A stretch of DNA of 64,000 nt from a virus: positions 32,001-96,000 of the IMG/VR virus record IMGVR_UViG_3300028800_000059; one strand, given 5' to 3'. A program made the position numbers and the translations under genes. Positions 6,366-18,303 of this stretch are shown piece after piece (positions within the stretch are counted from its first letter, which is position 1; the number at the start of each line of letters is the position of its first letter). The notes under the pieces are model-generated. The model made no database searches, was not told where the DNA came from, and worked only from the letters and a program-made list of their open reading frames with translations.

Positions 6366-6544
6366 TAGTCGATTACCCAGTCTTTTGCAAGCACCGGGTC
6401 CTCCTTGCGAAGTTTACGGACACATTTTTCGTGAGCCAATTCGAAATGAACGTCACTCACATCTTCTGGATTGATAATTAGTCTAAAGCCAACACGGGCT
6501 CTTGGACTGACGGCTCGTTCACAGAAGGGACAAATGACTCGCAT
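6365..6544 (-). CDS. Small hypothetical protein (59 aa; CPFC...HEKC)
   Basis: Hand translation MRVICPFCERAVSP...; TTGGAT-17-TAGACT promoter upstream. Confidence 0.5.
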   Translation of the reverse strand: MRVICPFCERAVSPRARVGFRLIINPEDVSDVHFELAHEKCVRKLRKEDPVLAKDWVID

Positions 6545-6613
6545 GACAAAACACTCCTTTACTCACGCAAAGAAAGTCTATCACAGTTTTGGTAGATATC
6601 CAAGAGAAAAAAT

Positions 6614-6688
6614 TGGTCGGACCACGGGGTGCTGCCCCCCGTCCCCCGGCTTGAAAGGCCAGTATTCTAGCTGGTAAACTATGATCCG
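6614..6688 (-). tRNA. trnE: tRNA-Glu(TTC), non-canonical T-loop GGCAGCA
   Basis: Acceptor CGGATCA/TGGTCCG, anticodon arm CTGGC-CTTTCAA-GCCGG, encoded CCA. Confidence 0.88.
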
Positions 6689-7074
6689 TAATGTTCCTTG
6701 CGATGGCAATTGGAACATAAAACCTCACATTTTGCAACTTCTTTCATCAAACGAGCCCAGCCATACCAAGTTAATTTATGGCCTATATTGAAATCTTTTT
6801 TTCCGTTAATATGATGAAAATCAAGACATGCTGGGTGATTTTCCCCGCATTTTACACAATTTAAAGTGGCTTTAAAGGCTCGCCACCTTTTTATTTTTTC
6901 TTTTTTCCTTAATCGAGTATCTTCAATATATTTAGATTTATTCTGTTGATAATGTGATTGATGATATTCCTTATTGCATTGAATACAATAAGCTTGTCTG
7001 TTTTTAGTAGGATGTATTCTAAAATTTTCTAGTGTTTTTGTCTGTTTACATCGATAACAAGTTTTTGTTTCCAT
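6679..7074 (-). CDS. HNH endonuclease with N-terminal zinc finger (start reassigned to METKTC)
   Basis: CYRC...C.QC, CVKCGENHPACLDFHH, LCSNCHRKEH; CTAAATA 5 nt upstream. Confidence 0.85.
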   Translation of the reverse strand: METKTCYRCKQTKTLENFRIHPTKNRQAYCIQCNKEYHQSHYQQNKSKYIEDTRLRKKEKIKRWRAFKATLNCVKCGENHPACLDFHHINGKKDFNIGHKLTWYGWARLMKEVAKCEVLCSNCHRKEHYGS

Positions 7075-7103
7075 ACACGTATTTAGACTTTCAAAAAAGT
7101 CAA

Positions 7104-7253
7104 GAAGTGAAAACGAGAGAAGGACGCCGAAATTCTCGGGACGGTCTTTTAGAACCACGCTCTCTATTGCGGGTGTCCTTCGCTCTTTCAAACTCGGGGC
7201 GTTTTAAGCCCGCCCCGTAAGGCGTATGAGTATTTTGGGCTCCACTTCACTCC
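7104..7253 (-). ncRNA. Putative multi-stem structured RNA (~150 nt)
   Basis: Closing stem GGAGTGAA/TTCACTTC; helices GGGGCG/CGCCCC, GAAGGAC/GTCCTTC, CCGA/TCGG, GGTT/GACC; promoter immediately upstream. Confidence 0.55.
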
Positions 7254-7269
7254 CTCAACTCACATAAAG

Positions 7270-7306
7270 TCTAGCACAGACCACACGAAATATGATTACG
7301 TTGTTT
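7270..7306 (-). promoter_or_regulatory. Conserved phage promoter motif, copy 2
   Basis: 29/37 nt identical to 240-276. Confidence 0.65.
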
Positions 7307-13770: not shown

Positions 13771-13858
13771 TGGCGGAGTTCGGAGGTCTTGATCCCCAAT
13801 CGATTTCTCGGTCGTTGCGCTTTCCAGGCGAACCTGATCCCTGACCAGTTCAAACTCC
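13771..13858 (-). tRNA. trnS: tRNA-Ser(GGA)
   Basis: CGC-CTGGAAA-GCG anticodon arm, long variable arm, GCCA end. Confidence 0.88.
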
Positions 13859-18225: not shown

Positions 18226-18303
18226 TGGTCCCTCTGATTGGACTTGCACCAATCTTTTTAGCCTTATGAGGGCTCGACACACCTATCTCTGTCTCACAGA
18301 GGA
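18226..18303 (-). tRNA. tRNA with CAT anticodon (Met or Ile2), T-loop TGCAAGT
   Basis: AGCC-CTCATAA-GGCT, acceptor TCCTCTG/CAGAGGG, CCA. Confidence 0.82.

Follow-up and report, generated by a model that had tools for sequence, protein, structure and literature searches.

What does a phage promoter transcribe when no credible protein gene stands behind it? The question arises in the window, by which we mean the whole 64,000-nucleotide stretch analysed here (positions 32001-96000 of an IMG/VR phage record, 177 kb in length). In it, a conserved promoter is followed by an ORF-poor stretch, which we call RNA X, and then by a gene for an HNH homing endonuclease. A sequence-only reading of this DNA had proposed an unannotated non-coding RNA at this site, a ribozyme or riboregulator possibly partnered with the HNH protein.

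The phage and the locus

The source phage is T4-like. The window encodes a T4-type DNA polymerase, a ribonucleotide reductase and a DnaB-like helicase, and a homologue of gp55, the T4 late sigma factor, was found in the genome (E 8e-13). The minus strand carries most genes, all tRNAs and every feature of the locus collected in Table 1.

The nearest IMG/VR matches to the DNA polymerase are at most about 50% identical. Homologues of two neighbouring proteins, the 392-aa protein and a glycosyltransferase, are ~33% and ~55% identical, respectively, and the loci that carry them share none of the other neighbouring genes. In practice, the phage appears to be without a close relative in any collection searched. 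Two public DNA runs match small parts of the phage, neither of them covering RNA X, and no RNA run containing the RNA X stretch is listed among the public sequencing runs. One contig of 258 nt, from a rhizosphere metagenome run of 2019, matches window positions 6494-6751 without a difference, which indicates that this phage, or a near-identical one, is present at low depth in the rhizosphere of that run.

Table 1. Features of the RNA X locus, in the order in which the minus strand is read (window coordinates; R2 is a covariance model of the phage's own tRNAs, see text)
Feature	Position	Strand	Remarks
65-aa ORF	7524-7327	minus
Promoter	7305-7268	minus
19-nt upstream promoter box, AACAACGTAATCATATTTC	7287..7305	minus	covers the -35 region; three genome copies
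Extended -10 element, TGCTAGACT	7268..7276	minus	10-nt gap after the box
ORF-poor stretch, RNA X	about 7259-7102	minus
Multibranched fold of RNA X	7102..7255	minus	predicted; MFE -51.6 kcal/mol, z -1.9
Closing helix	7255-7246/7111-7102	minus	mean pair probability 0.86
SD-like AGGGAG	7250..7255	minus	also the 5′ side of the closing helix; aligned to the true SD in the P2 leader
13-codon GTG mini-ORF	7204..7245	minus	frame translation; TAA stop in the loop of the GC hairpin
GC hairpin, CGGGGCG / 9-nt loop / CGCCCCG	7217-7211/7201-7195	minus	probability 0.98; z -2.9
Branched domain, 10-bp stem GAG+GAAGGAC/GUCCUUC+CUC	7185-7175/7125-7115	minus	probability 0.97-1.0; z -2.2
Two or three inner hairpins of the branched domain	within 7174-7127	minus	probability 0.41-0.95
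AU-rich hairpin, GACUUU-UUUG-AAAGUC	7086..7101	minus	pairs 7101-7096/7091-7086; probability 0.94
CTAAATA late-promoter motif	7080..7086	minus	5 nt 5′ of the HNH ATG
HNH homing-endonuclease gene	6679..7074	minus	131 aa; GC 32%; 461 homologues
tRNA-Glu(UUC)	6614..6688	minus	unusual GGCAGCA T-loop; RF00005 37.4 bits; R2 72 bits
Second promoter (P2) with SD	6586-6545	minus
59-aa ORF	6544-6365	minus
392-aa ORF	6365-5187	minus

A promoter with two sisters

The conserved promoter that the sequence-only reading had placed at 7270-7306 on the minus strand is real. It is one of three near-identical copies in the genome, the others lying at window 275-238 (minus) and at genome 113044-113080 (plus). The 19-nt box is matched at 19/19, 19/19 and 18/19 positions, and each copy stands 9-10 nt before an extended -10, which gives the consensus AACAACG(Y)AAT(Y)ATATTTC, 9-10 nt, then TG(Y)TA(V)A(Y)T. 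Elsewhere in IMG/VR, the only matches to the 19-mer box are unrelated coding sequences. The box is conserved where a sigma-70 promoter would have its -35 hexamer; it looks like a site for a phage or host factor and hints at a transcription factor dedicated to this promoter class. Transcription is predicted to start near 7261-7259.

At the two sister promoters, a Shine-Dalgarno (SD) sequence and an ATG-started ORF follow within about 30 nt, the ORFs having 174 and 60 aa. P2, further downstream, is a partial copy; it shares the -10, of which TGNTAGACT recurs at 6583-6575 (minus), and the leader including the SD, and it is devoid of the box.

Open frames between the promoter and the HNH gene

It had been claimed that no SD-led ORF follows the promoter of RNA X. 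This proved inexact, as the SD-like AGGGAG at 7255-7250 and the 13-codon GTG frame starting at 7245 are both present, with 4 nt between them. In the MFE fold, the AGGGAG pairs with 7107-7102. A further open frame of 47 aa in the region has neither a start nor a homologue, and a 62-aa ORF on the plus strand has zero homologues among 1.84 billion representatives. As a pseudogene test, the region was compared in six frames with about 240 fetched loci using tblastn, and the result was empty.

From a TTG at 7191 onwards, an open frame leads into the HNH gene. Translation of this 170-aa frame through the region had been named as a finding that would speak against an RNA. The frame is not conserved: the HNH homologues aligned (n=30) all begin M-(E)-T-K-x-C at ATG 7074, and the longer homologues have no common N-terminal extension, so the 170-aa frame is not a gene. 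The HNH start is accordingly ATG 7074, giving 131 aa, and not 7071. If the promoter fires, it would transcribe about 170-185 nt without a credible protein gene.

These frames raise the possibility that the stretch has no function at all. It could be a remnant, consisting of the promoter and SD of a protein gene that was truncated or has decayed, possibly during invasion by the HNH gene, with helices that arose by chance in a GC-rich spacer. We consider this a serious contender, albeit on the unlikely side. In its favor, the AGGGAG and GTG are followed by just 13 codons, and the sister promoters drive ORFs; on the other side, no protein-level similarity was found in any frame. The median gap between ORFs is ~39 nt, so that ~250 nt of junk would be unusual, with the caveat that this median comes from a crude greedy ORF map that is too noisy to rank the RNA X gap.

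Predicted fold and base composition

The helices listed in the sequence-only reading are all in the sequence, and most are predicted in the thermodynamic ensemble (Table 1). The helices P3 and P4 are robust in the ensemble and persist when the context is changed; the closing helix vanishes when 40 further downstream bases are included in the fold. A proposed GAGCC/GGCUU pseudoknot fared less well. It has 5 pairs including a G-U, is expected at about chance level by our estimate and competes with a predicted local helix.

Measured against dinucleotide shuffles, the 186-nt segment has a z of -1.8, and the sub-elements reach -1.9 to -2.9 with boundaries that were chosen post hoc. As background, we folded 244 windows of 160 nt, mostly coding, for which the mean z is -0.5 and 12.7% fall at z < -1.8. 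The stability of the RNA X fold is inside the range of the phage's own coding DNA. Since RNA X lies within this background, and since T4 RNA D, a genuine stable RNA, has a z of only -0.8, thermodynamics neither proves nor excludes a functional fold. An unremarkable z is what a functionless remnant would give; against such a remnant stand helices of 7 and 10 pairs that are perfect or nearly so and have probabilities >= 0.97.

The GC content of RNA X is 52-56%, as compared with a genome value of 41.6%. This puts it at the 94th percentile among windows of 150 nt, and in this respect RNA X resembles the tRNAs more closely than average DNA. A GC content so far above the genome mean, as in tRNAs, is a further point against a decayed protein gene.

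No terminator was found after RNA X, and the GC hairpin has no trailing U-run. The latter bears on a leader-peptide device, in which translation of the 13-codon GTG frame would remodel the fold and so set HNH/tRNA read-through or stability. The alignment of its SD-like motif with the true SD of P2, and the position of its stop exactly in the hairpin loop, are attractive features. The close spacing to a GTG start, the lack of a U-run behind the hairpin and the absence of any run of regulatory codons in the peptide make such a device quite improbable in our judgement.

Searches for relatives of RNA X

With Rfam 15, there were zero matches at the gathering threshold in 7085-7306, and zero at E <= 10 in a 1.4-kb search. 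The proposal of a ribozyme or riboregulator thus found nothing in Rfam to lean on, even at this permissive threshold. Searches with blastn and nhmmer against the about 240 fetched loci found no relative of RNA X, and an exact 27-nt RNA X pattern was not found in IMG/VR.

We also built a single-sequence covariance model of RNA X, R1. In the phage's own genome, RNA X itself was the sole match. Nothing was found with R1 at 81 loci of HNH homologues, and nothing significant at five glycosyltransferase loci. Six complete phage records likewise gave nothing significant; five of them come from relatives, and the sixth has no match to the DNA polymerase of this phage and is not counted as one. That RNA X is an orphan in all searches is again compatible with a functionless remnant.

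The absence of RNA X at the 81 HNH loci, together with the ordinary tRNA genes that flank the HNH gene in other phages, also speaks against the proposed partnership with the HNH protein. The known precedent is HEARO, the IscB omega RNA (RF02033), likewise a structured RNA beside an HNH-containing ORF. IscB-type proteins combine RuvC and HNH domains and are several hundred aa long. Here, unlike in HEARO/IscB, there is no Rfam match, and the 131-aa protein has neither RuvC nor the other IscB domains. The sole argument for a ribozyme, or for an RNA that guides or partners the HNH protein, is adjacency to the HNH gene. With no ribozyme, HEARO or intron match in Rfam at E <= 10, no RuvC domain, the RNA at 0/81 homologue loci and flanks made of ordinary tRNAs, we regard such an RNA as very improbable.

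A group I intron carrying an HNH ORF was considered and rejected: there is no RF00028 match at E <= 10, the tRNA-Glu is complete and no split gene flanks the locus.

An HNH family at the edges of tRNA genes

If the HNH protein does not explain RNA X, it does explain much of the neighbourhood. Its homologues number 461, and the best of them is 48% identical. Across 30 of them, C6, C9, C30, C33, C73, C76, D85-F-H-H88, N122-C-H124 and H128 are invariant; the alignment holds two CxxC pairs and the HNH motif only, and a RuvC domain was not seen in it. Pfam gave zero matches to the protein at E <= 0.01.

tRNAs are present at 26/80 HNH loci. The closest full-length homologues in IMG/VR mostly lie between same-strand tRNAs in phage tRNA clusters, where the upstream tRNA usually ends 22-60 nt from the HNH gene and the downstream tRNA follows immediately. 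The HNH ORF often ends inside that downstream tRNA, by 10 nt here and at loci L171, L178 and L181/182, by 7 nt at L165 and by 15 nt at L204. As this overlap recurs in unrelated phage contigs, it is a trait of the HNH family and not an accident of one genome. L165, the closest homologue on a viral contig, also precedes a tRNA-Glu(ttc). Taken at the level of sequence and gene order, the HNH proteins appear to be a free-standing homing-endonuclease family with a specialisation for tRNA-gene 5′ edges.

Two consequences follow for RNA X. Since the HNH homologues usually have a tRNA upstream, RNA X stands in the place that such an RNA gene takes. Moreover, the GC content of the HNH gene (32%) is below that of the genome (41.6%) and of its RNA neighbours (52-61%), so the gene looks like an insertion into GC-richer RNA-gene DNA. 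This fits a mobile insertion that arrived recently by horizontal transfer. RNA X is missing at the 81 loci of HNH relatives, and the HNH gene explains the neighbourhood without needing it.

tRNAs of the phage

The tRNA region of the phage closes with tRNA-Glu, whose initial 10 nt are shared with the tail of the HNH gene. The phage has tRNAs with GGCAGMA-type T-loops, which are largely missed by Rfam and ARAGORN. We therefore built a covariance model, R2, from seven odd-T-loop tRNAs of the phage and ran it with filters off. Within the first 24 kb, no tRNA escapes R2, and the held-out Ser(GCT) is recovered as well.

A tRNA in the slot upstream of HNH homologues, a branched domain that is cloverleaf-like in outline and a phage with odd tRNAs that standard tools miss might together suggest that RNA X represents one or two tRNA genes that have decayed or become highly aberrant. 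However, R2, run with filters off, finds nothing in 7085-7306 at E <= 10, RF00005 at E <= 10 and ARAGORN at relaxed thresholds report 0 tRNA genes in RNA X, local alignment of RNA X to 15 phage tRNAs stays at chance level, and there is no CCA end. We find such a relic hardly credible.

R2 gave two additional matches on the minus strand, at 18226-18303 (21.2 bits) and 13771-13858 (13.0 bits), that are missing from the output of ARAGORN and Rfam; these could be additional tRNA genes of an aberrant kind.

A CTAAATA motif adjoins tRNA-Met and tRNA-Gln, at 9115-9098 and 12949-12935 (minus). Late transcripts of these two tRNAs would have leaders of about 2-5 nt.

A late promoter and a probable leaderless HNH transcript

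The sequence-only reading had also described a GACTTT/AAAGTC hairpin, followed by a separate late promoter for the HNH gene. Both were borne out, the promoter being the CTAAATA at 7086-7080. In many HNH relatives, (C/A)TAAATA is found directly upstream, and a hairpin often accompanies it. At L165, hairpin, ATAAATA, 5 nt and ATG succeed one another as they do here, which assigns the hairpin at 7101-7086 to the HNH cassette and not to RNA X.

CTAAATA is the late-promoter consensus of the T4-like phage Aeh1, where it begins at -12 (PMC1524935). In our phage, the motif is strongly biased towards one strand, with minus:plus counts of 13:2 in the window and 25:5 in the genome, and of 30:6 in the genome for ATAAATA. 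The marks of a T4-type late promoter are found together: a TATAAATA-like motif at -12 to -6, a bias to the coding strand and a gp55 homologue. With CTAAATA at -12 and 5 nt to the ATG, a late HNH transcript would start at the A of the ATG.

The same spacing is seen elsewhere. Seven genes on the minus strand have (C/A)TAAATA exactly 5 nt before the ATG (motifs at window 7086, 27247, 33218 and 43062 and at genome 1257, 117148 and 142748), with SD-less ORFs of 78-448 aa. The late mRNAs of these seven genes would be leaderless, provided that the motif acts as a T4-type late promoter at -12 to -6.

RNA X as a possible leader of a tRNA-Glu unit

The reading that we tentatively prefer, while giving it somewhat less than an even chance, takes RNA X for a GC-rich orphan that belongs to the tRNA-Glu unit, either as its 5′ leader or as a small RNA transcribed along with it. 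It is favored because the promoter has two near-identical sisters that drive ORFs, because this region has no supported ORF, and because the HNH family sits in tRNA clusters and RNA X takes the position of their upstream RNA gene. The GC contrast between RNA X and the HNH gene, the late promoters of the HNH relatives, the seven genes with the 5-nt spacing and the robust helices P3 and P4 count in its favor as well.

In this scheme, the original unit would have run from the phage-specific promoter through RNA X to tRNA-Glu. The HNH cassette, made up of the hairpin, CTAAATA and an ORF extending 10 nt into the tRNA, would have been inserted later, between leader and tRNA-Glu. The leader would most likely act in cis on promoter-proximal transcripts, with its 5′-proximal helices protecting or organising the precursor and masking a vestigial Shine-Dalgarno; the SD-less HNH start would be silent until the leaderless transcript appears late in infection. 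We infer here that the stretch is transcribed, in which order the events took place and that the fold has a cis function.

Several observations weigh against a leader. The SD-like motif and GTG could mean a past or present protein or peptide gene. A leader of ~160 nt is long vs the 2-5 nt for tRNA-Met and tRNA-Gln. RNA X has no homologue, its z lies in the coding background and its closing helix depends on context. The structured leaders of stable-RNA operons and the stabilising stem-loops at RNA 5′ termini offer a parallel, as they too are promoter-proximal, ORF-poor and structured and stand ahead of a stable RNA gene; in RNA X, a helix starts within a few nt of where the 5′ end is predicted. 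In RNA X, unlike in those leaders, no boxA-like or other known motif was recognised, and any function is deduced from position and predicted structure.

Comparison with known phage systems

RNAs of comparable position are known from T4. Its rnaC (139 nt) and rnaD (119 nt) are, like RNA X, ORF-free RNAs in the tRNA region, and they lie next to tRNA-Arg, which adjoins the homing-endonuclease gene segB, just as RNA X lies near an HNH gene. The roles of T4 RNA C and RNA D are unknown (PMC3014915). Unlike both of them, RNA X has its own promoter directly upstream. T4 rnaC also has a canonical T-arm-like hairpin, with a z of -4.6, and RNA X has no such hairpin.

In position, size and raised GC content, RNA X would pass for a counterpart of RNA C and RNA D, that is, a processed, stable small RNA acting in trans. 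Against this, R1 scored <= 7 bits in the T4 tRNA region, with no notable match on rnaC or rnaD, there is no sequence similarity to either, and the folds are different. The element resembling a T-arm and a terminator are both missing, and complementarity of RNA X to the rest of the genome is at chance level only. We rate a counterpart of this kind as improbable.

A bolder proposal stands somewhat higher in our estimation, though we still think it unlikely: RNA X may be a functional stable RNA of a new, single-member class, with its own activator-type promoter in the tRNA region, built from the GC hairpin and the branched domain and having a role in tRNA biology or host takeover, of the sort suspected for T4 RNA C and RNA D. 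If RNA X is functional, it joins a small set of phage tRNA-region RNAs like T4 RNA C and RNA D, in a phage that also carries rewired tRNAs.

The firmer gain is in the context, namely an HNH family at the 5′ edges of tRNAs that has its own late promoter and, apparently, a leaderless mRNA. Given this habit of the family and the late promoter, RNA X need not be explained through the nuclease, whether or not it is the leader of the tRNA-Glu unit.

T4-type homing-endonuclease genes are silent on long early transcripts and are expressed from a late promoter (PMC2988022). Like I-TevI, segB and Aeh1 mobE, the HNH gene is embedded in a longer early or middle transcript, and a late promoter of its own adjoins a hairpin, so that expression would be expected only late. 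Unlike them, it has no SD to sequester, and its late promoter is placed for a leaderless mRNA. Hairpin regulation of the I-TevI, segB or mobE type was rejected for this gene, as there is no SD and the hairpin covers neither an SD nor the start. The hairpin at 7101-7086 ends 11 nt before the ATG, which is only partly paired in folds of the long transcript.

A second HNH gene of the phage, at 16413-16057, shows the classical I-TevI/segB arrangement. Its CTAAATA lies in the 5′ arm of a hairpin (16444-16411, minus), the 3′ arm reaches the ATG and the loop contains an SD-like AGAGG.
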